From Candidatus Omnitrophota bacterium (GTDB taxonomy: Bacteria > Omnitrophota > Gorgyraeia > Duberdicusellales > 4484-171), in assembly GCA_024231025.1 (NCBI GenBank), contig JAAEQW010000139.1, forward strand, positions 7,851-71,850: a stretch of 64,000 nucleotides of DNA, given 5' to 3'. The position numbers and the translations under genes are program-made. The notes under the pieces are model-generated. The model had not been told where the DNA came from. It did no database searches and worked only from the letters and a program-made list of their open reading frames with translations. This document shows, in pieces, positions 24,001 to 64,000 of this stretch; position 1 is the stretch's first letter; each line of letters starts with the position of its first letter.

Positions 24001-27000
24001 CCCATCACAGATTTCCTTACGATGCTTAGAAAATTCTAGAATTTTTTCATCGAAACTGTCAATCTTTTGCCGATTTTCTCTGCGCTGGGTCGCCAATCTT
24101 GTTTTGCTCTCTTCCGCATTAGTTAATCGATCTTTCGCATTGCCTAGTGCATTTGTTTCTTGCCTGAAACCTTCTTGAAGTTCACTTACATAACTGCCTA
24201 AAGCATCAACTAAAGCTGCCTGCGCAGAGGATAAATCTTCTTTCACCTGATGAGAATCGCTTAAAGCAATTATCGTTTTCTCTAAATCACTTTTCTGATT
24301 AAGCAACTCACTCATTGCCTGTTTGATGCGCTGGCGTTGTTGATTATGTTGATGCAATGATAATTCAACCATACCATCTAAATTCTGTTTAACCTTTCTT
24401 GCCTGGTCTTCAGTATCTGATCTTTGCCTGCGTAATGTGTCTAATTGGTCGTTAAGCTTCTGTGCATCTTCTTTGGCTTTTTCTTTTTTCGCGTTAAGAT
24501 CATTTATCTGCCCGATTGTTAAAGATAAATCCTCTAATTCACTATCAATTGAAGGTACAGCTTCTAAATAATCGTTAACCTTTGACTGTAATGCTGTGGC
24601 ACGTTCACCATCAACCTTTAACTGCTGATTGTTTTCTTCGATATCACTCTCTGCCCTCTTTAAAGATCCTTTTAATTGTTCCTCTTCCTCATTAATGCGA
24701 TCAATCGTATCATCATGGGAGCGTTTCATTTCGAGCGTATCGGCATTGGCCCTTTCTATTAAGGTCTTATTGCTCTTAATCATCTCATTAAGCTCTTTTC
24801 TTATATTTTCCAATTGCTGGCTCTTGTCATCTAGAACCGCTCTTTGCTTTATAAATTTATTTTCTAACTTCTCTGTCGCATCAATTGCAACTAAAGCATT
24901 GCGGCAAACAGCAAACGCGTCTTCATCCATTGATTGCGCAGATGTATTTTCAAGATTTTCTAATCCCGCTTGCGCAAGCAAAACATCTCGTCTTAAAATT
25001 TCTAATTGCGATAACTTTTCCTCGCTCTCATTAACTATAGGCTCAAAAAGATCTGCCTGAATCTTACGTAAATCAGTAATTTTTTCACTTACATCAAGTA
25101 ACTCTCTCTCATTATCCCTTAATAATTTTTCTGCAGCTGTTAATTCTACTTGCAGTGAAGTTCGCAAAGTGCTAATTTCATTTTGTTCTTTTTGAGCAGA
25201 TACCAAATCGCTTTGCAAATTCAACTGACACGCTTGAGTTAAGGCAGGAAACTCATCTGCAACATTTTGCAGATGCTTTATTCTTTTTTGTCGTAGTTCA
25301 CACTCTAAGGCAGATAATGCAACTTTCTCTTCTTTAGTGCGTGCGGCCGTTAAACTTTTCTGATAATCATCTTCAAGGAGAAAGACCGTAGTGGTTTGCT
25401 CCGGTATTTTTACGCTTATCCCTTTTAACTCTTCGTTTTCAGCTAACAAGCGTTCACTCTGGGAGCCTTGAATCACTCGTGACATATCATCTACGCGCAT
25501 CTCTAAATCAACTAAACTCTCTAGCCTACTTGTGTATTGTTTATTTAATTGGTCTCTTTCTTCTTGCTTTGGGTCTAATTCGTCTTGGGCTTTTTTAAGT
25601 GCCTCTTCCAAAGGAGGCAGGCTTTCTTTTAGCTCTTGGCGAGTGCAAGTGTTTTTGCTTAATCTAGTTGCAATCGTCTCCCAGGCATTCACTAAAAATA
25701 ATACGGGGTCTTCGTCTGAGAGGTCTTTTTGATCATTCTTAATTTCATCGAATAAAAGTGCCCTTTTATCTTCTAATTTTTTCACTTCTTCATTTGAGCC
25801 TTTTATTTTATTTCCAACATCATTTACTTTTTCCTCGGCCTCTAAAAAGCTGTCCTCTATTGGAGATTCTTCTTTTTTGATTTTCTCTAGCGCAGTTTCA
25901 TTTTTTCTAAGTTGATTATTTTCATTGCTGAGCCTTTCCCTTAAAGAAGCTAAATCACTTTCATAACCACCTAAAATGCTTTTTAGCTCAGTTAATTTTT
26001 CTTCTAATTTATTCACTTCTTTTTGAGCTAATTGCTGCCAAGTTGAACAATCAAAATCTGCTGCTTGTGCGTCTTTGGCGCTTACCCCTATTGTTCCTAA
26101 TAGTTGCGATTGTTCCATTTTCAATCCTTCAATTTCCCTTTCTTTTTCCGCTGCTGTTACGACCTTGCGACGTCCGAATGCAGAAAGGCGCGGCGTAGAC
26201 CGCACTGACTGCCTTCTCTCAGCAATAATTAAATTATCATGTTCGTTACGTGCGATAAAAAGAGACTTTTCTATTTCTGATTTTCGAATAAGCAAAGCCT
26301 CTAAGTCCGGTGTTTGGCCTACTTGCCTACAACTATCGCGCAAAATTGCCGCTTCTTTCTCGCTTTGTTCTAACTTTTGCGTTATTTCTTCATATCCTTC
26401 GGTACATCTTTCTAGCTTTCTCTGTGCTAAAACAAACCCTTCCTCCTTTTGCTCAATTACTTCCGTTAATTGGTTGCGTTGTATTTCAAGTTGACGCCAT
26501 CGACTGCTACCCTGATCCTGGCCCATCAAAATTGTTTCTTGAAGGGCAATATTTTCTCGGATCTGATTAATTTTTGTTATTTTTTTACCTCTCTCTCCTT
26601 TTTTCGCATTAAGTGCACCCTTTAAATTCGTCAAATCACTTTCTTTTGGAACAAGTTTTGCCTCATTATCTCTAATTTTTTCATCAAGACTGCCAATATC
26701 TCCTTCGGTAGCCGCGACATCGCCTTCAATACTCTTTAGCTGCTCGTTTAGTTTTTCTACGCCATTATCTTCATCTTTTAAAAACGGTTTCTCAGCAGTC
26801 ATACTTTTTATTTCCAATGATAACCTTTTTCGCTCCTCTAATAGAAATCTATTTCGCGCTTTTGCTGATTCAACTTCCTCGCTATCGGAATCTAAATTAG
26901 CTGCCCGCAATCTATCCTCTTCCAATATATCGCTGGTTCTATTAAATTCCCCTATCGTTCGATTTAACTCCTCGAAATCAGCAATTTTTTCTCGCAATCC

Positions 27001-30000
27001 CCATCCTTTAAGCTGCAACTCGCTAAGCTCGCTAAGCTTAAGTGCGCTTTTTGCCTCATCTTCACTGATTATTGCAGATATCTCTTTCACTTCGCTATCA
27101 AGAGGATCATGATCGTTCTGAAGATTATCTATCTCATCATTAAGCTGCGACATGGTATCTTCTATTTTGCCCACACTTTCGCAATTTAGATCTATCTCAC
27201 GAGATAAAGATTGCACCTTTCTTTTTAGCTCCTCAAGACTCTCATCAACGCCCTCTCGTTGCTCTTGGTTTTCTTTTAGACTTTCATTTATTTCTTTATA
27301 AGTTTGCTTAGCTGCATTTAAGTCTTCGTTTGCCTTTGTTAATGCTTTTGTGTCTTTAGCAACTTCAAGCTCCTGCGTTCGAAGCACCAATACACTCTTA
27401 GCTATTTTCAAATCTTCATTGGTTTTATTAATTTCTTCCTCTTTGTTTTGTTCTTCTCTGCTTATCTCATCTTCCAAAAATGTAATACCTTGTTGCGTTT
27501 CACTGAGAAGCCCTTCTCCGCGTGCAATAGCCTCTTCGTGAGATTTTCGTTCATTTTTTACATCGCTACGCTCTGTGCCAAGACTTATTAATCGCGCTGT
27601 TGCCGCGGTGTATTCATCATCTTCATTTGATAACTCTTCCCTCAGAGAATTTAAGGAACGCTCGATCTCTTCTGCGGCAGAAATAAACTTTTCAATTTTT
27701 TTAACCCGACCTAAATCATCAATTGTACGTTGTTTGTTATTTATATCTGTTTCTATTTGATTTCGCGCTTCTTCTTTTTGTTCAATATCAAGATCTAAGA
27801 GCCTAAGATCATTTTCATCGGTTTCTTTTTGCTTAAGCATTTCAGAAAAATTTGCCTTAACAGTTTCTAGATCTTGCTTCAAAGTTGCCAAAGCTTCTAG
27901 ACGCGCTGGAGTAACCGTTTGCGTTAATTCGCTGTGCCTAACATTTAGTTGTTCTAGCTTTTGAGAAGCCGCCGTTAATTCATTGTCTGATGTTTCAAAC
28001 GCTAGCCTCAATTCTCTTAATTCTTCCCTGGCTCGGTTTAACAACGCCTCACCATCTGCTTGCTCTTTTTCTAAAACCACTAGCCCATCTTGCCAAACTT
28101 TACGTTGCCTTAACTCAGCAATCTCTTCTATTTTAGCGCGAACTTTATTTGACCTTTCTGTTAGTGTTAGTGTTAGCGAGTGCGCCTTCTGCTCTAATTC
28201 TGCACGCTTCTTCTTAGCAATATTTTTTTGATGTTTGCGATCAGCAGCTGCTAGATTAGAAAAAGAAATTTCAAAATCGCATTCACCCTTGACGTCAGTT
28301 TTTAGCTTGGCTATTTCTGAGAAAGGTAAATTGCTCATAGACTTCTCATAATCGGTTTTGATTTTCGCAACCTCTTTTTCTATTCTATCAATTTCATCAG
28401 TAAGTTCTTTTTCTGAATTCCAAACAGTAAGATATTCTTGTTCGGCATTCGATTTGTCCGTAGCTTGCTGATCGCGCATCGTTTCTATTGACCGTTCGTT
28501 TTTAGCAACAGTATCGTGTTTTGATAATGCTGTTTGACGTAATTCTGCATTAAGAATTTTTACAGCTTGACTTGTTCCTTCGTTTTCAGCTTTTGCGGTG
28601 CTAATTTGATTTTCGCAGTCAGAAAGACTTTCTCTGGATAAACCCAAATTATTTTGAAGTGTTTGGCGTTCTGCAGTTAAGCTTTCAATACGCGTTTCGA
28701 CACCTTTTGGATCGCCAAGTTTTTTGGTATCGTCACCAAGGGAAGATATAGATCGCAACTTATCGCTCACGTCTTTGTCAAAAGAAGTAATTTGCTCTTT
28801 TAGACCTTCACTCTGATGTTCTAATCTCCTCTGATGATCACCTAGAAAAATGCAATTTTCATCAACAATCGGGAAACGTTCCCGCTGAACACGTTCTAGA
28901 TAATCTTTAACCATACCCGCTTGTTTGATTGCCTCACTATTTTCTGCCGCATTGAAAGATGCAACTTGCCCAACGAGAAAGCTTTCCATAACAAAAATTC
29001 TTCTGGAAACATTTCGATATAATTGATAAAGACTTTCACGTAAATCGTATAAGCTATTTTCATCTAAAATACCATCTGCCACTACCGCGCGATACGCTTT
29101 CATCTCACGGGCATGATTGGAGAGTAATTCTTTCAAATCCCCGATTACACTTTCATCCAATTGGCTCAATTGTGAAACTTCAATGTCTAGCCCTTCTTCT
29201 TCGGTAGCTTCTTCTAAGGTAAAGTCCCCTTCCTCGAAGTCATCAGCGCCTAGGGCATCTTTTTCTAATTCAAAGTCCCCTGGTGCAAAGTCGTCAGCGC
29301 TTAGAACATCTTCTCCTAATTGAAAGTCCCCTTCCTCGAAGTCGTCAACAGTTAGTGTTTGGCCGCTTTCTTCTTCATTATCGTTACCACCATTGCTGCC
29401 TAGAATTCCTAAGATTCCACCACCCAAACAAATTGTAACAGCAAGTGCTAAAGAGCTTGGGGTTGTTTCTTGTGAAAAATAATCTGCTACCTTCTGAAAG
29501 TCAAAATATGGCAATATATTACTAACAAAGAAGCTGACTGCTTTTACAGCCATAAACACAAGCGGAATAATTGCAAATGGAATAAGGCCACACAATGGCA
29601 TCGGCTTAGTTCTATTTAATAATTCGCCAACAACGTTATAAAAATTCTCACCTTTAATAATTGTTCTTGCAAATAATTCCCAAGCCTCTTCGCTATTGCC
29701 AAAAAGCCTTAGCGTTATCCCGGCAAATAATTCTCCCTCATAACTGGAAAAAGTTGCTTTTATGGCATGCGACTTACCTTGACGCTGGCTTACAAGTTCA
29801 AGGGTAGTTCTAGATAAAGCGCCTTCTTTTGCCGCAAGAATTACATCCAACGCAATACCGTTTAATAGCATTTGTCCGATATCTTTCCCTTGGTTAAAAG
29901 CTTTCAACCTAGGGGCATCTTCTGCACTGTATGCGCCGTCACTATCTGCGTCAAAGCCACCATTTGTGTATTTATCAGCCAAACGTAACCTCGCATAATA

Positions 30001-33000
30001 AGCACCCATTGCTTCTTTATGGTGAGGAGTTCTTGGCAAAATCCCTTCAAAGCACAAAAAATGAGTTAGCTCTTCAGGGAAAACAGCTTCAAGTTGCCGA
30101 GGCGTTTGCGCCGCGCTCATCGCAATTGTTGAACCTTTTTTTGTAGAAGAAGTTAAATCGTTAATGAGGCCGGCCTCTTTCATCATTCTGATCGTTTCAG
30201 GTTTAATTTCTTCATTTGGCATCTCTTGGGGGAAAAGATCACTAAATGTTAATGGCTTTATCGCCTTGTGTATAAACCTTTTTAGAGTTTCTTGCGTAAA
30301 CCTTTCTGATTTTATATATGGCCAAAACTTCCTAACAAAAAATCTAATATTTTCGTCAAAAACTATTCTCTGAGCATAATAAAAACTCAATTCTGCTCCG
30401 AGATTAATGATCATTCTGAGCTGCCTTACCAAAACAGCAAACTTTATTTCCGAAATATCAGACGCAAAACTGTGCAAATTTTCGCCATCAACTTTCAAAT
30501 CTTTAAGATATCCGGCAGAAGTCACAAGGGCAGTTTCTAATTCCGCACGCTTTGTTAGGCGTTGACTGCTATCATCCTCAAACGCTCTTACGACTTGGCT
30601 ATGTGCCTTATCAAGCTCGACTAAAGAAAGAATTAGTTGAGCGATTTTATTACCTCTTTCACAACATACCTGGGAAGCACTTACATCAGGCGCTAAATTT
30701 TTTTCCGCCTGAGACGTCACGTTAGCCTTACCTTTGCGCATCGCTTCAAGTTGACGCTTCTTTCCATTTGCGTGGCGTTCTAGTCGATCCCTACCTGGTG
30801 CGGTTTCGTGCACAACCACTTGTTCAATAAATGTATCATAGCGATAATCTCTATTGGCACCAACCAAAGCTGTTCGAATTTCACTATAAGATAGGACCAA
30901 GCTCATCTCGCCGCCATTACTTTCAGCAATTGGTAAAACTCTTCCATGCTTTTTAAAAATCGCACCATTAATGATTTCAGTATCTTTAATGAGTTCTTCA
31001 ATATCATTGAAAATGTCTTCGTTGCGTCGGTCGATAAGCCATAACCTCATTTCCGCAATTGCAGGGAAGTTGTGGCTTCTAGAAAGTTCTGCTTTGAGCT
31101 CTTCTTTTAATTTACTAATTACTGGTTTTACGCTTTTACCCGTTAGCAATTTAAGTACTTCTTCAACATATAAACGCTCAAGAATGCTAAAAACGTGTTT
31201 GGTCGCGTCAACATTATATATTGCCTTATTATCCTGCCCCCAGGAGTATTCACCCGACCAAAACCATTCTGACACTTTTACTTTCTTCTTATTTTTTTCA
31301 TCGTACTCTCTTCGTTTACCCTTAGTAGGCCTTCCGGTTAAATCCACGACGAGTTTTCCGGCGTCAAATTTCCGACAAGCTTTACGACGAATTCTTCGGT
31401 TAGCTCTGCGACGAGTTTTAAGGTGAATTCTACGGCGAGCTTTCCGACAAGCTTTACTGCGAGATTGTCGCTGAATTATACTAGATTCTATAGTAACCGC
31501 GGGTTCTACGGAAACAAAAACAATATCTTCCAATTGTAAAAAAGCAAACCCTACCTTTCTGGGGTCCATCTCATCATCTAAAGACAAGAAACACTCCAAA
31601 CCGAATCCGGTTCTTTTAGCCATGTCTCTAACTGCGGCTGCCTTATTCACATCAGCCCTTAACACATCAACGCTGGTAGTACCGCCCTCAGTCACCACCA
31701 AACTAGCGTCTGAAGGACCTAGTGCTACCTTGCGGTTGATATTATTAACAATATCCTCAACAATTTCACCTAAAATTTCTCTCGCTGATTTTTCATTGAG
31801 TATTTTCTTGCTAGGATATATTCGCGTAAAAGTATATCCAACAATTGCTCCTGCGGAATCTTTTCTTGTATCAATCAACGGCCAATCATCCGGCAACGCA
31901 GATAAAGGATCGGCTGCGTCACACGATAATTGCTTTGTTAAATTTTTTACATTTTTCGGCTCTATATTCGAACCATGTAAAACTTTGTATAAATCACCAA
32001 TAATTTTAGGTAGGTTTTCTTCTATTCTTTCTGACACCCTCACCTCTTTGTAGTGCTTATTAAACCAATCCCTGTGCGCTTTACTTGAACTACCACTTAA
32101 AGAGTGTTTAATTTTCCCAATGAGATCACCGTGCTCATCTTCATTATCTAATAGCGATCTATTTTTTGCGATTGTGATTATAATTGTTTCCCAAATCCCG
32201 CAAATACGTTTTAACGAGCTTTGCAATAAATGTTCTTGGTCGTCATTAAACCCTTTGGTATAGCGGGTGTCATCCTTAAAACCTCTGCCGGCCTCGTCAA
32301 TAACCCTTCTGACTCCACCGCTATAAGCATAAATGCTGAAACGCTCAAAAAGACAATCAACAATAAATTCAGTTAAAGAACGACCCTGCTGACGGTCAGG
32401 TTGATTACCGGAAATAACCGCATAATGAAGACCCCACAAAAGAAACCTATTTTTATACTCAACAATCTTAAAATCTTCCGGATCATTACGCAAAGCGGTA
32501 GTTAAATCCATATCCGTGGCAATCACTCCTCGGTTGATACGCTTGATCCCTCTCAATACTTTTTTATCAATTACTAGTTTTCCGTAACTATCAAATTCTA
32601 TTCCTTCAAGCGGCTCAGTAGTGTCTTGCAGACGGAACTTATAGCCTGAGTCATAAACAACTAGTTCTGCCTTTTTGCGAACTAAAATATCTAATAGGCT
32701 TCTTCCTTCGATAGTTTGAGCTTGGGGCCCTAGTTTCTCGATTAACGCTAGGAATTGACGGCAGACTAAAACAGTTAACATGCTTTTACCTTCGATCAAA
32801 CTTGGACCATAACCATTTTGCTTTATTTGCCGGGAGAACTCTTCATCCTCAATATTATTTCTCGAATGAAGCGCTATAAGATTTTGCCAAACAATTACCG
32901 CTAAAGCCTTTCGTTCTAATTGATCTAATTTTTTTCTAGGCTCTTGAAACCGACGCTCCACAAGCTTAGAGTCTGTTAATTCGATACCGGCAAAATTATC

Positions 33001-36000
33001 GCCTTCAGTTTGCCAGGTTTGCCTTTGGTTAGCTATCATTTTGGCAGTTCTAAGCATTGCTTCAAATTGCAAATAAGAAAAATTAAAATCTTCAGCAGGA
33101 TTACGCTCTATATATTCAAACTTCTTTTCTAAAGCATCATAAATTCTTCTTCTTAACTGTTCAATGTTGCTGAGACTACTAAGCAATTGCAACGGAGTGC
33201 TGGAATAATCGTTAGGATTATTTTTAATATCCTCAATGAAATCTCCTAACAACACTCTAGAGGACTGTCTGTTTTCTCGAATTTCTTGCGAATTAAGAAG
33301 ATAAATATAAACGCGAACATATTCCCAATTATAATCTTCACTCGAATAACAATGAAAAATGCCCTTTTCATCATAATGAGGCTCTCCGTTAAAACTATTT
33401 TTGCCAATTTTTTGGTTTCCTTTGCTTAAAACACCCAAATGATGTAGCCGATTTTCATCAACCGGAGAAAGTTCGATTCTTTCTCGAAGCAAACGGCAAG
33501 CCGCTTCTTTGTAATTCTCAATTTTAGGTTTTCCTTGATTGTCTTTTTCGCAACGAAGATGACCCGTCGCAGAAAGATCCTTTCTTCCATGATCCCGCAC
33601 TGGAATTATGACCTCGCCAGTTTGCCAATCTAAAGCTAATACCGCAACAACACCATGGCAGCATAAACCTTCCGATGATAATTTGTGCCCATCTATCCAG
33701 CTACTTGGCTTTGGATCATTACTATATGAAACATTTCGGTCAATATTTCCATTTGCTTGATTAACCCTAACAAGATCGTGCCTGCGTTCATACATCAGAC
33801 CAGTATTACCTTCTCCAATAGCAATTACTGTCTTATTGATTTGCGATACTAAATTATCCAGCTGGTCTTTTGATCCTTTAGGAGCTCTCTCGATAATATC
33901 ATAAGGCAGCTTTTTGTATTCTTCATAGTAGTAAATCAAGGCATTAATAAAAATCGGCCAAGCCGAAAGAGCACTGCCTTCATCATCATCCAATAAATCA
34001 CCCTCAATTAAACGCTTGCGCCCTTCTTGATATTTCGCCTTAACACTTTGATAAAGAGTTCTAATTCGCACACGGGGGGCTCTTAATAACTCTAATTGCG
34101 CTTGTTTTCCGTCTTTACACTTGGCGCAAGACTCATGCGTCTCGACCTGCTCAATCACAAACTCCGCATCAGAAGGCGATAAAAGGTTTTCAATCCCACT
34201 TGGGCTAGTTTGCCAAGCAATTGTGTAGTCATTTTCTGCTTCTACTCTTTTTGCGATTGACCGACCGTTGGTCTCCCGCTCTAGTTGTTCAACTAAATTA
34301 GCTAATCTGATTATTTGGTCGGCAATATCGGCATTGTCTGAATTATTAGCCCAACTGCGAATTTCACTGCTCTTGGGGAAGTTGTGGCCGCGGTCTTCTA
34401 CCATGCCAAAAACATACGCTGCAAGTTTATTCTCATGTTGAGAAACAGCTTTTTTTGCTTTTACTAATTCACGCATCAGGTCAAACTGAGCTTCAATCCC
34501 ATTTTCATGACGCTCTTGACCATTTTCACCTGGCGCTAATTCATGGATTTCTACTTGTTTAATAAAAAATCTATACCGATGAGCTCTTTTAGCTTTAGTT
34601 AATGCTTCTTCCATATCCTTAACGGATAACGCCCAATTTAAACCCCAACATATGTCGTCGCCACTCCACCGCGCAATCGGCAAGTGCTTCTCATATCTTC
34701 TAAAAATCTCACCATCAATAATTTTAACATCCTCAATAAGCTCTCTTAGCTGCTCAACAATATCCGCGTTCTTCGCACACCACCCTGAATCATTAAGATA
34801 TTTTTCTAGATCCAAGGCTGTAGGGAAGTTGTGGGAAGATCCACGCCTTAGCGTCTTAGCCACTAGCTGATAGACTTCTTTCCATTTTGACTTGCGCGAA
34901 TGATCGCGCAAATTCATTACTCGCGAAATCACACCTAAAGCTACACCAAAACAACCAACTAATATTACTATAAAATCCTTCGTATTCTCTGCATAATCCA
35001 TGCTCAACTGCCATTGGGCGAGACGGTAAATGCTTACGGAGAAGGTAGCTGCAAGAATATAATGTCTAAACTTAGAAACAGATCCATTAAGCATCCTAAT
35101 AAGCATTATAGAATTCATAATTACAAGTGCAATTAGCGCATTGTCTCTCGTGAAAAGTGAAGACAGGATATTATTTATTGAGACAGTTTGCGCAGTTGCT
35201 GAGGCAACTAAAGTGCTAGTGCTTGCTTCTGCTGAGCTGCAACCAAAAAGAAACGCTGCTAAACCACCAAAGAATAAGATCACGCTAGACCCTAACCAAT
35301 GTCTTCTAAACGCTGGTGTCGTGCGGGTGTTAACATCAACAAAGTTATATATTGCAAACACCATCGCTGCTGAAACAAGCGCTACCAACCCACATTCTTG
35401 AATGAAAGATGAAGGCAACAGCCTATCCCCTACTGTTGCAAGCCACCCCGCGGCTTCCTGCGCCCGGGCGGAGATGCTGGCTAGGGTAAAAATTGCAAAG
35501 GATAATAAGATTGAATAAGTTTTATTACCGCTATTTGCACCGATTTTCAGTATAGATAAGACAACCATACCCAAGCCAGCAAAAATTGCAGCAGGCAACT
35601 CACCTGTGAGAACATCCACAGCCAAAACGGTGCCAATAAATAGGGTTATTCTTTTCAATAATCCTAAAATTATATTGCGAGGGGTTACAGACAGCGCCTG
35701 TTTTACCAGCCTTTCCCACTCAGGCAAAGGCACAAGCCCAATATCATTATTCGTTGTTATGTAGGTAAGGTGAGTTTCTAATAAATCGTTATTATTTAAG
35801 TCTCTTATGGTTAAATTGCATACTTCTTCTTCGGATAGGTTAGGATCGCGTAAATGATAGAATTCGTGGAAGCGGAAAATAATACGTAGTTGCTCCGGCG
35901 GTGCACGTAGAGTAAGTGGATTAATATATAGTCGGCCGTCAATTATTGCTGGTGCACCAAGCGATGGTGAGATGAGTATATCATTATTGGTAAATTCTAT

Positions 36001-39000
36001 CCCCTGACTCTTTAGATAATCACGCCCGCCAAAAGCAGTATAGATAATTTTGAGTTCGTCATCCGTTGCATTACGATCAGGAAGATTTTCGGTTGGCATG
36101 GTGGCGGGAAAGTTATGGCTGCCTTTTTCCTTGGTCAACTGCCCAGCCACTAATTGATAGACTTCTTTCCATACATTAAAATACTGACCACTTTGTGCGG
36201 CATAAGAGATTATAAAAGACCAAATAACAAACACACCGCTTTGCATAAGGAAAATATGTTTAGGAAAATATACAAAAGCAATTAAGTTAATTATCCCCCA
36301 AATCGGAAGAATAGTAATAACAAGTGTTGTTGGGATCTTTAAAAAACGCCTCCATCCAGAAACTGAAGAATTAATAAAAGGTTCCTTGCCACTTTCTTCT
36401 AACGACTTTCCTTCAACCAAAAATTTATTCAGAAAAACATCAAACCAAAAACTACCGCTAAGGCCCCAAAGTACTAAGTCAATAGCCCACATAATAAGAG
36501 CGGGATGATTACCAACCAAATTAGAGGTGAGGTTAGCGTAATAGGGCAAAGCCATACCAAGCCAAGCCATTCCCCAAATCGGACCAAATATAAAAATCGC
36601 GGCCAAAGCCACGCGCAATAGTTTGCCCGGAATAAGTTTTGCCTGTTTATTTTTTATGTTTATAGCAGTAAGCTGGGCAAAATAGTTTCCCAAAACCCGT
36701 GAAGAAACAGCAACCACTATAATCCGAGAGATACTATTTACATAACTAAATTCAGCGCTTGCAGTCCCAAACCAAAATAAGCTGATCAACGCACCATGCA
36801 CCAAAGAAACTGCTAAAACCACCTGTTTCGGATATTTTGTGAAAATCCGATTAATCTTACCTTGAATAGCTTCCAGCCTAGAAGTGCCGCCTCTTGCGTC
36901 TTCAGTCAACTCCGCTCGATATGCTTGGTGCTCACTTGCTCCGCTATTACTATTCGCACCACGCGCTGTGTCTTTTACAGAAAGAGCATCTGTAATCTCT
37001 TCAATACTTGCAGCAGGATCTTGCGGATTAAACTGCACCACCTTCATTCCTGCTTTACGCGCACCATCGATGTTAACCTCAAGATCGTCAACAAACAAAC
37101 ATTGATCAGGGGTAAACGAAACTGAATCAAGCACCGCCTGATACATCAACGGATCTGGTTTACGTGCACCAATATTCTGAGAAGCAAAAATATCGCACTC
37201 GGCTATTTCTAAAGAACGAAACGTCGGGATAATCCTACGGTAAAACATCGGATTGTTATCAGTTAAAATCCTAATTGCATAACTTCTCTGCTTTAAATCT
37301 TTAATCAAAGTTGATATTTCCGGAATAAGATCGCCACAAAGATTATCGTTAATAACCTCAAACCCTGCTTTGCTTACTCTACTCCCTGAGACACCTCTTT
37401 GCTCAAACCACTTCTTAGTGGCCTCAACTAACTCTTCGTCTGTCGCAATTTGCCCTCTATCAAACTTATAAAACGGATTGTTCACATCATCAATCCTTCC
37501 GCTCCAATACTGCCCTGCTACTTCTGGCGAACATCCAAATTGTTTACTAATGTCATCAACCACCTCTTCTTCGTTGTGACGGACAATCACATTTCCCACA
37601 TCAAAAATAACGCATTTGACCACACTATTTATATCTTTTATCACTCTTGTTTTTTTGCCCTCGGATATACTTTCTACACTATATTGAGCAATCTTGGTAG
37701 TAAGACTATCAAAATGCTCATCCAGCTCATTAACACCTGGCAGAAGACTGAACATATGGTGGAAGTGCTTGCTGTTGACACTAGCTCCAGCCCACAAACT
37801 TTGGTATATAATTGCTCCATTTGTTCGGTAGGCTAAATCAACGAATGCGAAAGCGTCTTTAGCTTCGAAATATTGTCTTTCTCTCTGGGCTAATACAAAT
37901 GTTGCGTAGTAATCCTCAGATGGCTTAGCATTGGGAATAATGTGCCAGCGAGATTTTTGTTCAATAAAACCATCTAAGTCCATGACTGCTAAGGCTTCTA
38001 TTATTTCCTGCTTGAGAACAACAAATCTATCATTATCTAAAGTTACCTCCGCAATTGCTGCACGAATTTGGTCTTGACTATAGCGATGGAAATCTTCTTC
38101 TGAGAAAGAAAATCTCCTCATCACCTCATGCGCCCCCACACTCCGTCCGTCAAGAATATCTGATTCACCTTTTTCTCTTGGAACTACAATAAGTGAATCC
38201 TTGCGGCCCAAAAGATCAAAAGGGATATCTTTGCTCTGAAGAACATCGATTATTGTATAAAATATCAGTGCGCTAACTTTTTGATCAAGCCCTTTTACCA
38301 CAAAACCATTCGGTTCTTTTAATTGTGCTAAATCAACTGTAACTGGCCTAACTCTTGCATCCAATCTTTTAATTTCGCCAAGTTTTAACCCATAGCTAAT
38401 TGCGTTATCTGCAGTTACAACATCGGCAAAGAAAAACTTTGGCTCCTGCTTAAGCTTAATCTCGGAAAGATCGAGCCACTCTGCTTTTTTCAATTTGCTT
38501 CCTCCGGGCCATATACCACATAAAAAAGGACCCTTCCACTCTAAAATCTTCAGCTTTTCTCGGGCCTTGCTAGAAATAGCAAAACCGATTTTTTTCTTCC
38601 ACAATCTCTCCCAACGAGTTTTTATTTCGGATGCTAAATCATGGGTGGCCCAGCTATTTATGCCCTGCTCTAAGATGCTGAGCAGCCTAAAGATGGTCTT
38701 TGCATAATTGTACTCGCTCTTTTTAACCGCCGCCAAAGCAGCATCATTTAATAATTGAGACAGCTTTTCAGCCAAATCAGCAGGTTCTTGAGTTTGCCAA
38801 TTCTCCACAACATAATCAGCTTCTAATCTATACGGATAACTAAATTTTGCTGCACGTCGCCGAATTCTCGACCACCGACGCACACTAGATAAAACTGAAT
38901 CACCGTTTTCTAAGCCCCGGTTAATATATCGCAACAACCTTATGTCGGATGGTGCTCGAAAATACACCTTCAATGTTTTACGATTCAAGCTAGCAATTAT

Positions 39001-42000
39001 TTCTCTGACTTGATTACCGAACGCATAAATAGAATCCAGTAATAAAATATCAGAAGATGTTAGATGCAATTGCGATAGAGCCTCTTTTACCCGATACCAA
39101 TCAATCGCATCAGGATGATTAATATCTGGATTGCCCTTACCTGTCAACGGCCATTCTTCCTTGGGTTTCAAATATCGATTAACTTGAAAATGCTTAAACC
39201 TTTCGAGCTCAGAAGCTTTTCTTGCCCATTTGCTCTTTCCCGAACACTTTTCTCCCGCAACCAAAACAATACAACCTTCCTGGCCATCCATTAAAGTTTC
39301 CCTTAAGCTATTTAATGAATGTAAAACCGCTCTAGAGTAAGCTAATTCCACAGCCTCATTCTCTTGATGGGTTCGGCCATTCAACTCATGTACAAACACC
39401 GCAGTAAGATTATATTTAGGATTATTGAAGGCTGGTTGTTCAATATATAGGGCATTATTGGGTTGGTCATAATAGGCAGCAAAAGTAATTTGTTTACTCG
39501 TAATAACTATTACTTTAGGCGGACCACGTTTTGGATCAACTCTATCTTCTCTTTCTAGAAAGCTTATTGCCTTTTCCCGTGCTGGATTAATTAACTTATT
39601 TTCTTCTGCGATTGGCGCGCGAAATTCAACACTTCCGGTACGGTATTTATCCAACTGCGTTTGGGTTTGAGCCAAAGTATAGCCATTGTATCCGCCGTCT
39701 TTTGAGGAAACAGGATCATTACCATCCTTAGACCTATACTTAATTGCACCGCTTAGCTTGGCATAAAATGCCTCGATAGTTTCTTGCACAACAGCGTCTA
39801 ATTGCCCCTCTCTATTCGCAACGACAATAAAATCTCTTTCTTTGTAGTGCGCTAAATCTTTTGCGTCTCTCCTTGCGTTTACCTCGATCGCCCGAACGAT
39901 ATTTTCCTCGCTAACCGATTCACCTAACTGCGTTAGAGCCCAAATGGCTCTATCTCGAGACTGCGCACGAATGAGAAAAGAAAACCTTGCCTCAGGATGC
40001 TTATTTCGTCCCACCACAATAACCGGAGAAGAAAGAGACATTTCCTTAATTTGATCCTTCATACGGCTTGCCAATTTAGTCGCAACGGCTCTGTTGCTCC
40101 TCCAAGCAACATTAGCTGCACTAGTGATTTCTGGCTGCTCAATATCTTCGGTTACGTCTACTCCGTCAACAAACACTCTTTCTTGCACCATAGTAAAAGT
40201 TGTATTATTAATTAGTCTCAGCATTCCTGATCTGTCTGTTAAGCTAACCCCTTCGTTGAAAGCCTTATGGGTTATCGCCCGATATATCTTACCACGGTCA
40301 AAAACCTGACCGCTAATGCGTGCAGCAAACGCCCAAGCAATAGCAGATTTACCAGTATTACTCTTTCCGCAAACCGAAACAATTATGCCACGACTGCTCT
40401 TAGCACTATGTAAAGGCATATTGAACTGCTCAGGAGTAATCTTCCCCTCTAAAGTGCTAATCAATCCACAAACAACTTGTGCATATCTGTATTTACTTTT
40501 TTTAATCACCCTATCAGCTGTTTTACGCATCAGAGACATTAACTTATCGCTTAAAGAAACAATTTCTTCTGGCTGCCAGTTCTCCACCATATAATCAACG
40601 TATGATTTATAAGGCTCAATAAATTCGACTGCACGCCGCTCAATTCTTGGCCAAGCACGCACGTTAAAAAGTACAGAATCGCCCATCTTCACACCTCGGG
40701 CAATCCGCCGTAGTAATCTAATCGCTAAAGGCGCCTGAAAATAAACCTTAACAACCTCACGCTCTAGTCCGCAAGCTATCTCACCTGTCTCCTTACCAAG
40801 GGCATGCAAAGAATCTAACAATAGTATGTCACTGGTTCCAAGTTGTAGCATTTTTCCTGAACGCCTTGTTGTTCTATTGTTTACCTTGTCATAATTTGCC
40901 ATTTCTACAAAACCATTCTTAGATAACGCCTCTAAGTCTTCCTTCAACCATTCCCAGTTAATCGCACGAGGATGATCAGCATCTGGGTTACCGCTACCAT
41001 CTATAGGGCGATCTTCCTGGCATTTAAAATATCGATCGACAGGAAAATGCACAAATTCATTACGTCCATCAAGACTCCTTGCCCAGGTAGTTTTCCCTGA
41101 ACAGCTGCTTCCGGCAACTAAAACAATGGCGCCCTTATGGTCAACAGCTAAAGAATTCGCCAAGCTCTGCTGTGAATGCATTACTGGGTTATGTGGCGGT
41201 CTGATTTCGTGCAACCGCCCAATGAATGACTCTCTATTTTTCAAAAAGAGCTCTCGGAACGAAACAAGGTCATAAGAACCAAACAACTTTAAAAATGCAG
41301 CTCTTAGCTCTTGGGGAGTATACCCATCCGTAGGATTAGTGTCGATTCCGGCTAATTGTGTAGTATGATCATATAGCCTTTGATCGAAAAACTCTATCAT
41401 TGCCGGGATTATATCTTCTAGCTGCCGACCCTTTGAAATCACTACATCCTTGCGCGCATGTCTTACAATTGTTGTTCGAATATCACCATCAACCACCAAG
41501 ATCTCTCCGTCATCTTCGCTAACACCAAAACTCGCTAATGATCCAGGGTAACGATTCGGGTACATATCCGATCCTAGCACAACAACCGAACCCTGCCTTG
41601 CCTGTCTATCAACAGAATCGTTATATCCTGCCTCAAAGCTACTACTTAAATCAATTATTTTAGCGTCAATAATTCTTGCTAACTCATCAGCGATCGCTAG
41701 CTTTGCATTTTGTGAAGAACCGTAAATAGACACTATGATTCCTGTATCTAAAATGTTTTCTACGGCAGCAACTCCCAATCTAGTCATTTGTTCAATCGGT
41801 AGTTTTCGCCGTAAGGCACTAACCAATCTCGAAGCTAACCCTAAAGACTGCCGATCTCTTTTGGGATCCATTTTAGAAATCGCATCCTCTAGCAAAAGTC
41901 TAGCCGGCTCAGACCATTTAGATAATTCATCCTCACTCCAATTCTTTATTAAATAATCTGCAATATCCTTGCCTGGTTCAATAAACTCTGCGGCGCGATG

Positions 42001-45000
42001 CTCAGCCACAAAGAACTGGCTTAAAACAATCTGCGGCTTCATTGAGCGCTCTTGCGCATTTCTAACTACTTTTCTAAAAAACTTAATTTCCGAAGGAAGA
42101 TCAAGATAAACCTTAACGACTCTGCGCTTTAACTTAGAAAGTAAATCAACTAGCCTCCGATCAAAGGCATGAATTGAATCAATAACCAAAATGTCATTGG
42201 AACCCAATCGCACTTTTTGTCCTGTGCGTCGCTTCTTAAAGCTTGCAAAATCTACCTCGCCAGTCTCAATCAACGCAGTTACATCCGTACAAAACCATTC
42301 CCAATTAAAAGCATCAGGGTGTTCATGGTCTAACAAACCATCCCACCTCTTAGGGTGTTTAAAATAACTATGAAAATATTTATCCCCAATGAAACGCTTT
42401 ATCGTTGGTACCGAAGCACACCATGTTTTTACACACCTACTCTTACCTGCCGCACTAGAACCAACCAACAATACAACCGTTCCTGCTGGTTGCCCTGCAA
42501 TAGCCTTCGTTAACTGACTAATACTAGAAAACCGATGATCATCTCCAAAGGTCTGCCTAGCCAGGCTTGCCTCAAAGCATGCCTTCTTGGCTGTAAGCAG
42601 TTTTGACTGCTTTTTGCTTAATTTACCATCTTTAACCTCAGCTTTAGGGAATTTCCAATGTTCCCTTGAAAAAGCTTCACATGGTGTAATATTAGATTGC
42701 TCAGAATATTTATTGCTTAACTCCTTTATTCTGCTAAACATCTCACTGTAAAGTTCTACCAATAACGCTGAATCCGACGATAAACTTGTTGCGCTCTTGC
42801 GGAAACTTGCAATTCCCTGCAACGCTGCTATCGTAACTGGGTACATTGCTTCAGACAATAGTCTATCCGTACCCTTGCTAAGCTCTTCCTGTGTTCTTTG
42901 CCACTGACCATTCCAAAAATCTATAATCACCGTTTCCTCATAAGGTCGAAACAATATTCGTAACTCTCTTATTCTTTGGGAAATCTCAATCTCTCCTTTT
43001 AATGCTGAATTAGCTAACTGCCCAATAAAAACCATATATCCACTGGCATCGACAAAAGAGGCAATGTTTGGCCGAAGATATTCATGCACAAACAAATCGG
43101 TAACAATACCATCAACCGAACCGCAATTGATCATTTCCGGAAAAGCATAACTACCCTTATCTTTTATATCAATCAGTAAGCGAGCAATTTCACCGATCAA
43201 CTCTTGGGAAGCTGGCACATTAACATATGATTTAATTTGCATAAGCAATAATCGCAGAAGTTGTAAGTACTCCCCATAATCAGGGTGATTACTGTTTGCT
43301 GCCAGGGCACGGTCTGCTAGACGGATCTTTTCACTATCAAAAGTAATCGTTTCAAGCTGATGTGGACCAACCTCTTGATAAGCAAGTATTGGCTCCATCT
43401 CCTGCCAATCTTCAGGGATTTGAGACCAAGAAGATCCGGCAATAAAAGCATCCGCCGGAAATCTACTGCCATCATAAAAAGGCACAAAAGCAAAAGGCAT
43501 TTGAGAATCAAAGGCTTGATGGACTATTTTAGCCGGAATAACAACTCCACCAGTCTTTACCCAATCTTCGATAAACATAACCCCGCTTCCTTTAATCTCC
43601 TGACCAGTCCTGGTATAAGATAAAAGTTTTCGTAATAAAGGTAAGGTTGAATATTCAACCGGATTGTGTGCAAAATAAGCATTAGCTTTTTGTTCTGCGA
43701 TATCGGCAATCCTCCTTGCTTCCTTAATAGCCCTAATAACATTTATTTCTCCGCCTTCAACATCATTGAGGGCATCCTCTATCTTTTTATTCGGTAAATC
43801 TAGTTCTGGATAATTCAAGCATAAATCGTAAACACGATTAAGCCAGGTAAGCACTTCTTCTCTAAGTGTTGCATCAGCTATACCATTTTGCATTCTTCGC
43901 TTAACGGTTTGAATACTACAACCCCCTGTATCTCTAGCAGGAGAGGCAATTAATTGAGTGATTTCAAAGAAACGTCGGTCAATTCTACCATGCTCAACTA
44001 ATAATCTGACCGCTTCTTCTACACTGATACCAACTAAATCAGATAACTCAATGTCTAGCTCCCCTAATTCTTGTAGGCTGACCGATGAAGTAATATCGCC
44101 TGCCATGTCTTCGGTAACCATAATTGCCCGATCTTCTTGAGTAAGAATTTCATTTAATGCCGGAGCAATCGATGTGAATCTACCCAACTTAACATGAGCA
44201 ATATCCTTCTCTTTCGGCAAATACATTCCTAATTTTTCCTCAATCGTTTGCTTCAACTCACTTTCACGTAAAAACTCCAAAGCTTTGATGATTTTACTAT
44301 TTCTGGAAACAACAACTAACTTGTGACTCCTGCGCATTCTCAATAAAGAAATAATATAAAGCGGCAACTCCTGAGGTGTAACATATAATCCCCAGGCGCC
44401 TTTTTTAATAGCCTTATCAAGGGAAAAATCAGGATTTTTCATCTTATCTCTTATAAGATAATCTATGTAGCGAACTATTCTTTCTTGATTAGGAAAGGTG
44501 GATAAAGCTGTCCGACGGAAAGCAACTACTTCTTCTTCGCCTAACTTAAAAACTACCTGCAATCGAGTAAACGCAGCCTTAAGGCGTCTGTCAAGATCTT
44601 CAAATACCCTAACAAGAGGAACCTGCACTCGATCTTTAGCGATGTCTCTACTGTCTTTGGCTTCGGTGTTAACCTCAATCAACTCACCCTTACTATTAAA
44701 TCTCAATGATCTCCCCTCAGGGTCAAGAAAAATACTTTTCTTAAGCAATACTGCTGTCTTTGCCATGCCTAAGCCTTTTACTGAGTAGGCACCCGCAGCA
44801 GTGAGTATTGTTCGATCGTGCCCATTTGGCTGATCGCCAGCAATGAAAATATTCTCTTCCTCAGCTTCAACACCGCGAATTGCAGTTAACTGTTCTTGGA
44901 AATTAATTAATCCTTTTCTTTTAGCAGAACAAGTTATGTCTAAACGCCTAGATCTCGTCATGCGATCTCCTCGATGAACAAGAAAGTCAATAGTTATTCC

Positions 45001-48000
45001 CGGAAAGCCTTGGCTTATCAAACGCTGCCGAATAACATCTCGTAAATATTTAACATAGCTACGATTGTGCTCGCGACTTTCTGGTTTTACTATCCAGCGG
45101 TATGGCTTCTTATGAACTATTTTAAGCTCTAATCTTTTTGTAATCTTCAATAAAGCATTTTTTTCAGAAGCAGAAAATTCACTTCGACCATACAGCTTTC
45201 GCCCGCTGGCAGTAACTCCTTCGTTAGAATTATCCGGATAGATAAACATATTGTCGGCAGCGGCAGAATATGCATCACTTCCCATTATATGCTTCATTGG
45301 TTCAAGAAGAACATGCTTAGCTCCTTCAATCGGCCTAGCTGTATTGAACGATAATAATATTCCATGGTTTGCCAACTCTACCAAAAATCCTAGAATTTCA
45401 TGTGAAGGATAAAGAGTGCCGTCAATATCGCAATGCAAGGCAATTTTAGGTTTTGATAAAGCATCATGGGTATAGTTTATCTTCATAAATTCTTCAGTGA
45501 ACACCTCTATATCTCTAGTAAACAACTCTCCGCAAAAGCGTAAACCGTAAATGTCTATCATTCGTCGAAGCATCGCTTTAAAATCTTCGTGGTCAACATG
45601 TTTAATGCTATGAAGGAAAAATTGAAAAGTGTAAGGTTGATATTTCCGCGCAATGCTCACACAGTCACTACCCAAAAGTTGAATGGTGCTGCCTATATTT
45701 AAAACCGTATCCATCCTAATGCCATCAAAAGAAGTCGAAATATGTCCATTACAAAATTTTACCGTTTTCCGCCAACACGATTGCTCTCTATTGCTAACCT
45801 TCTTGGTAGGATCCAAATTGGCAACATGACGCACGAAAGAAGTAAAGGCATTTCGACCATTATCAGCGACTGTGAGCACCTCCACATCATTGTTAACCGC
45901 TGCCACAACCTTTACCTCCTTGCTCTCGCTCTGGGCATAGTCTGAAACTGCATTTATTATCATTAGCTCTCTTAAAAAAGCTCCCAATTGTTTAGCTGGA
46001 CTCGAATGAAAAAGTTGTCCCTTCTTTTTATTGTAATCTATGCGATGGCCAAGATTATGAGCACCAAAAGGATTATGAGGAGTGAAAATCTGTGCAGCCA
46101 TAAGTCTCAGAAAATCACGAAGTTCTTTGTCTCCTTTCAACTGCGGCGGCTCCGTTCCCATCTTCTCATACCAACCTCTTACTTTATCCAAAGTAAGTGC
46201 GGAATTCCTCCAATCAACTGAAGGCACTATTCCAACTCGACTACGAATTGCACGCCGCCTTCCACCTAACAAAGATGGTATTTTCCACCAATTATCATTA
46301 GATCTAATTAGTTCTTGAGGATCAAGATGCATAGCCGAAGCTACCCTAGTTTTATGATCAGCAGCAAAACACTCTACCTGAGGTCCTTTGTTGTTGTCGC
46401 ATCTTCGAAACACTTTATCACCGATTACACCATATTCACCGAAAAACCTAACTAGGCTAGCCAAATAATACACGATTGAACCAGCCGCCCAACTATCAAT
46501 AAATCTTATCTTAGAATGTGAGAAAATACCCGACTCTTTCAACTCCTCATAAAACTCTACCGCCCTCTTTTGAAAACTAATTTGACTAGTCATTAAAACA
46601 ATAAAATCACGATAGATTGACTCTCTAAATGCATCCTTGTTTTTAGCACGATGATGTTTTCGAATTATCTTCCTTATGTCATGGTATATAAAATCCATCT
46701 TGGCCCTGCTCAAATAATAAATCATTGAATCATTAGGAAAAATATCTAATTGATCCATCAAATACGCGGCAGTAAAATCTCGTCCACAATCTCTTGCCAG
46801 AAATACATTTATTTGGTTAGGATCAACTATCTGCTCAACAACATAAGGCGCCACACCAAACATCCCGATCAATGCCCTAGCTAAATTATCATTAGGATCA
46901 GAAAGCATCTTCACGAAAGAGTTTGCCGTAAGATTTAAAAGAACACTATCTAATTTTCCTAAGGGTTGGGATAAATCAATTTCCTTTGCCAGAGAACCGG
47001 CCTCGCGAACTACCTCACTTATTAACGCTTGTCGATTGCGAAATGAAAAAGACGCTTGCGGATAATAAAATTTGTCTACTCTGGAATCGCTGATTGGACG
47101 AGCATAAAATTCACTTTGAATATCGCTTTTAACGCCATGAAACTCTCGTAATAAACCAGCCTCAAATATTGCTCTCTGAGCTTCAATAGCAGTTAAAGAT
47201 ATTGAATCAATATTTTTATCTATACCTGGGGCAAATTTCAAATGGGCCTTATTTCGTGTTCGACACGGTAAAATATTAAACATCTCGTCATAATTCTGAG
47301 CTAATACCCCTATTGCCCCCATCATCTCGCCATAAGCCACTTTTAATCTCTCCGATTCAGTTGAAGAATCCGCTGCTAAATTACGAAACTCAACGATTGC
47401 TTCAATAGTTTTAATTGTAAACTCGGACATATTAATCTCCGTTAACCTACTAGCTCCTAGATTAATCTCTTTCGTCGTTTTTTGCCACTCATCTCGCCAA
47501 AAATTCACAATCGCCAGTTCTTCTTCGGCTCGGAATGATCCTCTCAACTTAATTAATTCTTGAGAAATCTTAATCTTATCGGTTAACACCAAGTTAACCA
47601 ATTTCTCGATAAAAGCTGTATAGCTAATAACATCTTTAAAGAAAGACACATTGGGTCGTAGATACTCTTTGATAAAACGAGCACTAATAAATCCATCTTT
47701 AATTTTTGCCCCAATTATCATTTGCCCATCATCACAGCTGCCCTCTTCCTTAACATCAATTAAAAAACGAATAATCTCAACCAAAACATCTTGCGCAACC
47801 ATCACATCAACTAAAGAGTTAATCTGCAATAAAACACTATAAATAAGCTCTAAATACTTATAGTAATCAAAGTAATTATCTAGGGCAACAACGTTCTTTG
47901 CGAGATATTTTTCTTGATTTTCGATGGTAATTTCCTCTAACTGATCTTTTTCAACTTCACGATAGGCAATAATTGGTTCCCAATCCTGCCAATCTTCTGG

Positions 48001-63984: not shown

Positions 63985-63990
63985 TTTTCG

Positions 63991-63996
63991 CTCCTT
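63991..63996 (-). promoter_or_regulatory. Shine-Dalgarno-like AAGGAG, 6 nt upstream of the candidate ATG start at 63984.
   Basis: Reverse complement of ctcctt at 63991-63996. The spacing to the ATG is canonical. However, the upstream in-frame codons still align with the repeat unit found at the starts of modules 2 and 3, so the ORF may continue 5' beyond the window. Confidence 0.45.
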
Positions 63997-64000
63997 AGGG

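Follow-up and report, generated by a model that had tools for sequence, protein, structure and literature searches.

A candidate minigluzincin-like module and a remote Mpv17 relative in a giant open frame of Candidatus Omnitrophota

The stretch of Candidatus Omnitrophota DNA analyzed here (contig JAAEQW010000139.1 of assembly GCA_024231025.1; 64,000 nucleotides, hereafter the window) is an internal piece of a gene for a giant protein exceeding 21,333 amino acids (aa), of a kind known from Candidatus Omnitrophota. The best overall explanation of the segment under study is that the protein carries, in succession, an Mpv17-like transmembrane (TM) domain, TM-A, a zincin module, Z, a further membrane segment, TM-B, and a set of U modules, with Z as a candidate cutter of the chain; we put the probability of this reading at about 0.45. 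The domain assignments are well supported, and the processing mechanism is one that we infer. An earlier note on this DNA had described the segment as a tandem pair of paralogous membrane domains, each capped by the same repeated SHNFP-containing module. That observation is real and non-random and its interpretation was partly right; new here are the giant-gene context and the identification of the parts.

Only two ordinary open reading frames (ORFs) of at least 150 aa occur in the whole window and neither covers the segment under study, because a single stop-free minus-strand frame runs past both window ends. This frame contains 0 stops, whereas the remaining five frames contain 779-2498 stops each. 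The GC content of the window is ~0.40, and its GC skew is uniformly negative. Amino acid i of the frame corresponds to window base 63999-3(i-1), with codon 1 at 63999-63997, and the parts discussed below are the following:

1..63999, minus strand: continuous ORF of 21,333 codons, part of the giant gene (stop counts per frame)
37036..37620, minus strand: HAD-type hydrolase, aa ~8794-8988, directly upstream of TM-A (PF00702 E=7.5e-12, PF13419 E=1.2e-11)
36124..36864, minus strand: TM-A, aa 9046-9292, six-helix membrane domain, putative remote Mpv17/PMP22 relative (hydropathy, homologs, AlphaFold2, AF2)
36136..36177, minus strand: tail A, NVWKEVYQLVAGQL, aa 9275-9288, predicted cytoplasmic amphipathic helix closing the TM-A domain (N236/W238 invariant; AF2 helix 237-254)
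35704..36123, minus strand: module Z, aa 9293-9432, candidate minigluzincin-like HExxH metallopeptidase module starting with GSHNFPATMPTENLPDR (homologs, AF2, Foldseek)
35854..35868, minus strand: HEFYH, aa 9378-9382, predicted zinc-binding and catalytic motif of Z (H89, E90 and H93 invariant in alignment A1)
34918..35673, minus strand: TM-B, aa 9443-9694, orphan polytopic membrane segment of 7-8 hydrophobic helices (hydropathy, by eye)
34837..34890, minus strand: tail B, SKWKEVYQLVAKTLRRGS, aa 9704-9721, copy of tail A past the last TM-B helix (tail versus tail z=14.6)
34390..34836, minus strand: U2, aa 9722-9870, starting SHNFPT and containing IIDGEIF, LPIA and EIHELAPG; only in this gene
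33970..34389, minus strand: U3, aa 9871-10010, starting GHNFPK and containing ETHES; divergent paralog of U2 and U4 (E=3.7e-5 versus U4)
30625..31077, minus strand: U4, aa 10975-11125, starting SHNFPA, with no adjoining TM helix (E=2.6e-24 and 33.5% identity to U2)

Z, a candidate zinc-peptidase module of giant proteins

Judged from its model, Z is a candidate for a small, previously undescribed minigluzincin-like zinc-protease module, absent from Pfam and NCBIfam. In a word-indexed protein database, aa 9040-9900 gave no match and the Z profile only two fragments. An exhaustive HMMER search of 1.84 billion representatives returned 47 matches, in proteins as long as 7,895 aa, the best-conserved stretch being aa 9286-9440 with 40-50% identity. 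In the resulting Z alignment no similarity is found upstream, and conservation sets in abruptly from (Y/F)PA(T/S)xP(T/S)..PDR.PT..E; the family consensus of the start is (Y/F)PA(T/S)xP(T/S)..PDR, and SHNFPATMPTENLPDRNAT is this N-terminal edge in the window. The consensus continues with ISPSL..PAEV..G.LYVNPN.LRGPPEQL.VIFEGHELxHL in the middle and closes with E..AR..T..YL..N.LL.SHI.FL. Across 58 distinct full-length Z copies, the H, E and H of the catalytic motif are kept in 58/58, 56/58 and 56/58 copies, and the candidate third metal ligands E101 and H121 in 55/58 and 58/58, respectively; the three residues ahead of F/Y-P-A are variable.

The AF2 model of Z, built on a 28-sequence alignment, reached a predicted local distance difference test score (pLDDT) of 94.1 and a predicted template modelling score (pTM) of 0.87. 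Its layout comprises a three-strand sheet, a long helix (79-95) with HExxH, and then helices bearing the conserved E and H; E101, aa 9390 of the frame, opens helix 101-114, and H121, aa 9410, lies in helix 118-126. The N-terminal motif is itself modelled as structured: residues 11-20 reach a pLDDT of 97, and there are short strands at 6-7, 10-11 and 20-21. Among the Foldseek matches of the model in the PDB, the top seven are selecase (4QHI, 4QHG, 4QHF, 4QHJ) and proabylysin (4JIU), with BepA in 20th place. These minigluzincins resemble the modelled Z in small size, three-strand sheet, HExxH helix and further helices with E and H. To the same grouping belong the related minimal zincins Wss1/WLM and SprT and, by their catalytic cores, M48 and M56 membrane metallopeptidases. 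Z differs from the minigluzincins in having no significant sequence match to solved structures and a weak fold match. Nothing significant was found for Z in Pfam, NCBIfam or, by Foldseek, a viral structure library.

A short stretch of Z, PPEQLRIIF.FHE (window 35854-35900), resembles the ubiquitin/parkin ubiquitin-like (Ubl) motif P.DQLRVIFAGKEL in a PDB profile search (E=0.08), in our judgement a chance likeness of short motifs. A ubiquitin-like reading of PPEQLRVIFEGHEL was rejected, as the parkin Ubl match (E=0.08) spans 24 residues and is contradicted by the helical zincin-type model and the invariant H/E/H.

To the extent covered by the searches, Z is restricted to giant open frames, where it stands between unrelated enzymes. 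Against 185,579 species genomes, the Z profile located 24 loci with 38-49% identity, hosted by Omnitrophota metagenome-assembled genomes (MAGs), MAGs labelled "uncultured Planctomycetales/Planctomycetia" and one MAG titled only "bacterium". The Z-bearing frame is open past both locus ends in 22 of the 24, over up to 6,800 aa. Some of the matched proteins carry two or three Z copies: the order is phosphoglucomutase/phosphomannomutase (PGM/PMM), Z, pyruvate phosphate dikinase (PPDK), Z, alpha-amylase in P0003, and HEAT, Z, LigT, Z, methyltransferase, Z in P0001. A hydrophobic helix lies within 100 aa upstream of 10/57 copies and downstream of 11/57 in the other giant proteins; in L003, L005, P0010 and P0012 a TM helix lies 10-15 residues ahead of the YPA motif, as it does in the window gene. 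Two published descriptions of Omnitrophota giant genes make no mention of an HExxH/zincin module, of Mpv17 or of polyproteins.

Within one protein, Z copies can be identical over ~140 aa, as seen in P0003 (aa 1373-1511 and 2213-2351; P0001 and P0002 were also examined), whereas copies of different proteins have only 40-50% identity to the window Z, a pattern that points to concerted evolution of Z within genes. Elsewhere in the frame a five-copy module is found (aa 585-760, e.g., window 61720-62247; aa 2740-2900, 3945-4110, 4790-4960 and 8072-8240) with the pattern EFRTPTAEEN..LINPAREKAISFLERE....LYIEQ..F..P..L.AVFVHELN..TH.EN. Its hhalign comparison with the Z family gave E=9e-4 and a probability of 23% over 77 columns, and its layout recalls Z; these copies may represent another zincin-like separator family, in degenerate form. 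Finally, SGAYPATSIVEIAQPDS (window 9042-9096, aa 18301 region) resembles the YPAT..PDR edge of Z with no recognisable Z body, and NRHETVE stands ~96 aa past it.

Membrane domains, tails and the HNFP motif

Outside the window, TM-A has seven homologs with 21-28% identity over aa 9046-9292, which together with the window copy form the eight-member family alignment A2. Its invariant positions include N66, Q70, R90, W107, E157, two prolines and N236/W238. Because the latter pair (N-V-W) is invariant in the family, the NVWKEVYQLVA helix is part of the membrane domain and not of the next module; in P0029 the TM-A domain is present with no Z after it. In the AF2 model of TM-A (pLDDT 77.5), six long helices are joined by a C-terminal one spanning 237-254; a Foldseek search of this model against the PDB yielded noise only (TM-score ~0.2), with no comparable fold.

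The link to Mpv17/PMP22 emerged from profile comparison. PF04117 is the top Pfam family for P0043 only, one of the eight members (20.1 bits, E=6.5e-4); the window TM-A has no Pfam match at E<=10, and neither do the other members or the consensus. With hhalign, A2 matched human MPV17 at 88.7% probability and E=2.6e-6 over 148 columns (MPV17 residues 22-175), while the controls, a reversed sequence and 15 shuffles, all stayed at or below 0.5% probability. The MPV17 query itself scored 82.4 bits against PF04117, which confirmed its identity. By this profile-level homology over the four-helix core, TM-A can be regarded as a remote relative of Mpv17/PMP22. The TM-A family and Mpv17/PMP22 (PF04117: MPV17, PXMP2, Sym1) have in common the motifs LG(N/D)xxSQ, R..R..LG, WY..L..P and LDQ, as well as W.P...F..P....Q...(I)W..(Y)LS. 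Unlike its eukaryotic counterparts, TM-A comes from a bacterium and forms part of a giant protein; it has six helices where they have four, and it carries an extra conserved C-terminal N-x-W helix. With six helices, and with Lys/Arg concentrated in every second loop of the sequence, TM-A would have an N-in/C-in topology. Both tails and Z would then lie on the cytoplasmic side, given the even helix count, the Lys/Arg in alternate loops and the ATP-dependent kinases upstream.

TM-B has no relatives outside the window among the 1.84 billion representatives and is detected neither by the hidden Markov model of the TM-A family nor by MPV17. In Smith-Waterman comparisons the 25-residue tails A and B alone gave z=14.6, whereas the two cores without the tail gave z=1.9, a value matched by 28/500 shuffles. 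That both segments are hydrophobic and polytopic, as the earlier note had it, holds good, with six long helices in the AF2 model of TM-A and 7-8 hydrophobic segments counted by eye in TM-B. The paralogy that it drew between them is not supported by the z-score or by any profile match, and TM-B appears unrelated to TM-A except for the tail. The WKEVYQLVA coding tracts of the two tails are identical at 25/27 nucleotides and 7/9 codons. Recent gene conversion of this tract was considered and rejected as not significant: codon usage predicts 4.5 identical codons, and since codon bias alone gives P(>=7)=0.065, recent copying is not proven.

Both strings that had drawn attention to the segment lie on the minus strand, WKEVYQLVAGQLTKEKGSHNFPA with HNFP at aa 9295 (window 36117) and KWKEVYQLVAKTLRRGSSHNFPT with HNFP at aa 9723 (window 34833), and the further copies GHNFPK at aa 9872 (window 34386) and SHNFPA at aa 10976 (window 31074) are likewise present. 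The motif is not due to chance: four HNFP copies are seen in the 21,333 aa versus 0.02 expected by composition, and only 34/2000 shuffles contain even one. The SHNFP codons differ among the copies (Ser is AGC or TCC), so that the motif is kept at the protein level. The residues S-H-N are variable across the Z family, yet they are identical in Z, U2 and U4 of this gene with no other detectable similarity, and here the SHNFP motif is under selection. A HEPN-like Rx4-6H reading of RRGSSH was discarded, the Arg being found in unit 2 only on inspection of the sequence.

Sequence comparison marks U2 and U4 as clear paralogs and U3 as a weaker one, and U as specific to this gene. The U modules have in common SHNFP, an N-A/E-D-I helix and I.QV..HE, with IIDG/IING.IF and LPIA in U2 and U4 only. 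No relatives of U were found outside in the search of 1.84 billion representatives, a metagenome pattern scan, PDB, NCBIfam or Pfam. When U was aligned with Z by hhalign, only 10-11 motif residues matched, and a detectable relationship of U to Z or to R modules was rejected at probabilities of 0.4-0.75%. The spacing from SHNFP to the hydrophobic-HE in U is 85-95 aa, resembling that in Z, and a further GHNYP...RRHELMHF unit (aa 19571-19649) has a similar motif-to-HE spacing; because of this spacing and this unit, U may be a very divergent Z derivative.

An uncharacterised element does recur, with two copies juxtamembrane, but the earlier description of it merges four different things: the Mpv17-like C-terminal amphipathic helix, the N-terminal edge of Z, TM-B with its tail copy, and the U domain. 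The expectation that each unit directly follows a membrane domain is borne out for units 1 and 2; no hydrophobic helix precedes units 3 and 4, so the motif is not strictly membrane-proximal. IIDG.IF...LPIA, said to follow each motif, does so in units 2 and 4 and not in the others. Nor do the four units form one alignable domain, since U2, U3 and U4 align mutually and Z shares ~10 motif residues with them (hhalign probability <1%).

Proposed processing of the giant chain and alternative readings

In the proposed arrangement, cytoplasmic nucleoside/nucleotide kinases and the HAD hydrolase would be followed by TM-A, closing with the NVWKEVYQLVA helix, then by Z, a minimal zincin of ~140 aa whose structured N-terminal edge would be (S-H-N)-F-P-A, and then by TM-B, closing with a copy of the same helix, and the U modules starting with SHNFP. 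Z would cut the giant chain itself, at module boundaries. We propose such processing because Z lies at domain boundaries across its family, its N-terminal edge is abrupt and the boundary motif is reused before other modules. Among minigluzincin-type enzymes, Wss1 self-cleaves and proabylysin is blocked by its own tail (PMC4559962, PMC5557861); the cleavage of giant proteins is an open question, with no cleavage points known (bioRxiv 10.1101/2023.11.21.568195). The arrangement is comparable with chains that contain built-in Cys or Ser proteases in that Z lies inside the chain it might process, at the boundaries of unrelated domains. It differs from them in the class of Z, which would be zinc, in the lack of a significant match in the viral structure library, and in that processing by Z is predicted only.

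Several points weigh against this reading. The 21,333 aa contain one Z and four SHNFP sites, and for this reason Z would be no general processing scheme for the whole protein. In the other giant proteins (Y/F)PA(T/S) occurs only at the start of Z, where it could simply belong to the fold, and in the model of Z the motif is structured, within the fold. The U modules carry HExxP, not HExxH. The Foldseek matches of Z are weak, the best having E=0.04 (probability 0.97), with no E-value below 1e-3 and TM-scores of 0.44-0.57, and Z has no significant sequence match in the PDB. The Pfam link of TM-A to Mpv17 stays under the gathering cut-off (20.1 versus 27 bits) in 1/8 members, and the topology is based on hydropathy and charge counts only.

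The main rival, possible though somewhat unlikely in our estimate, holds that Z is a peptidase with other substrates and that the motif is structural. It fits the confidently modelled N-terminal motif, the presence of BepA (M48) among the fold matches, and the finding that the regular expression [YF]PA[TSNQHI][LMIVPA][PSLV] never occurs away from Z in 215 thousand aa of related giant proteins; that most Z copies stand between cytoplasmic-type metabolic enzymes, ~80% of them far from membranes, is a point on the other side. The U modules bear on this rival in both directions. They keep the SHNFP...~90 aa...hydrophobic-HE spacing and a similar N-A-x-D helix past the motif, and the second GHNYP...HELMH unit at aa 19571-19649 repeats that spacing, all of which a structural role would accommodate; however, the hhalign relation between U and Z ends at 10-11 columns, and S-H-N is common to Z and U here though not conserved in the Z family, so that fold conservation alone is insufficient.

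The remaining alternatives are less probable. The earlier note's own view, one membrane-proximal module of helix, SHNFP and IIDG/LPIA that occurs in four copies and caps a pair of paralogous membrane domains, has in its favour the excess of HNFP over expectation, the two near-identical tails and the IIDG/IING..IF and LPIA shared by U2 and U4. We nevertheless regard it as improbable, as the TM cores reach only z=1.9 with no profile match, unit 1 is a member of a different, widespread family, and no TM helix lies close to units 3 and 4. Still less credible is that Z serves as a scaffold or beta-grasp-type linker rather than a peptidase: the parkin Ubl is indeed its best PDB profile match (E=0.08 over 24 residues) and Z recurs as a linker between enzymes, but that match is not significant, the five residues H/E/H/E/H, each kept in 55-58 of the 58 copies, would be needless for a scaffold, the model shows a helical zincin layout and not a beta-grasp, and the fold matches are metallopeptidases. 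That the 64-kb frame is no real gene, being an assembly chimera or a repeat-driven artefact, we consider extremely unlikely. An exact 42-mer had no match in genome or metagenome contigs, and an 861-aa query had none in the word-indexed protein database, as an artefact might; against this stand the stop counts (0 versus 779-2498), bona fide Pfam domains along the length of the frame, homologous modules in equally open frames at 24 independent MAG loci, and the uniform negative GC skew.

The wider frame and its significance

In the same frame, Pfam places a PHP domain at aa ~4100 and a run of P-loop nucleoside/nucleotide kinases at aa ~7160-8450 (PRK/uridine kinase E=1.5e-25, cytidylate kinase E=2.1e-18); the run (window ~38650-42520) also holds AAA_33 and AAA_18 types. 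The kinase run and the HAD hydrolase directly before the Mpv17-like domain suggest a unit for nucleotide salvage located at the membrane. Further along the frame, at aa ~16604-16774 (window 13678-14190), is a GGDEF diguanylate cyclase domain (E=4.2e-35); GGDEF has been reported from further Omnitrophota giant proteins. By hydropathy, aa 9060-19908 contain seven hydrophobic clusters, with two dense ones at aa 9060-9267 and 9443-9694 and smaller ones downstream of these. Compared with the Omnitrophota giant proteins described by West-Roberts et al. 2023 ("Archaeovorin" and Dockerin types; bioRxiv 10.1101/2023.11.21.568195), the frame has in common the enormous single ORF, the numerous TM regions and the patchwork of divergent enzyme domains including GGDEF, and relatives of its modules are found in Omnitrophota MAGs. 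Unlike in those proteins, Pfam matches over the 21,333 aa of the window include no SecA_DEAD, C39, S8, glycosyl hydrolase/transferase, NUDIX, dockerin or TSP3; the window carries nucleotide kinases, PHP, HAD and GGDEF instead. SecA_DEAD, C39 or S8 domains could still be encoded beyond the window.

The first part of the frame, aa 1-8700 (window ~37900-63999), is built of large internal duplications with 30-80% identity: aa 150-600 are repeated at aa 1934-2370, 3149-3598, 5191-5618 and 6719-7150, and aa 4356-4796 show 50-61% identity to aa 7156-7598. A duplicated 153-aa segment (69% identity) recurs ~4,800 aa apart, at aa 14186-14338 (window 20986-21444) and aa 19019-19169 (window 6493-6945), both copies lying soon after a TM helix. 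At aa 16234-16242 (window 15274-15300), YPHELLHLVGH presents an HExxH with a third His close by. It is flanked by two TM helices (aa 16142-16181 and aa 16279-16297), has no Pfam match and, from its sequence, may be a candidate membrane-embedded metalloprotease site.

Loss of MPV17 in humans depletes mitochondrial DNA via nucleotide shortage, and a bacterial relative of the eukaryotic Mpv17/PMP22 channel fused behind nucleotide kinases would be of interest given this phenotype. Bacterial giant genes, with 20,000-85,000 codons, were discovered only recently and are poorly understood, and whether their products act as one chain or as pieces is the central question. The segment described here offers four handles on it: a sharply bounded zinc-peptidase-like module of ~140 aa conserved across the Omnitrophota-type MAGs where it was found, the intact catalytic residues of this module, its position between unrelated enzymes, and a short boundary motif that this gene reuses ahead of unrelated modules. 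With these four, cleavage becomes open to testing on a single small recombinant construct or in proteomics data that are already available.

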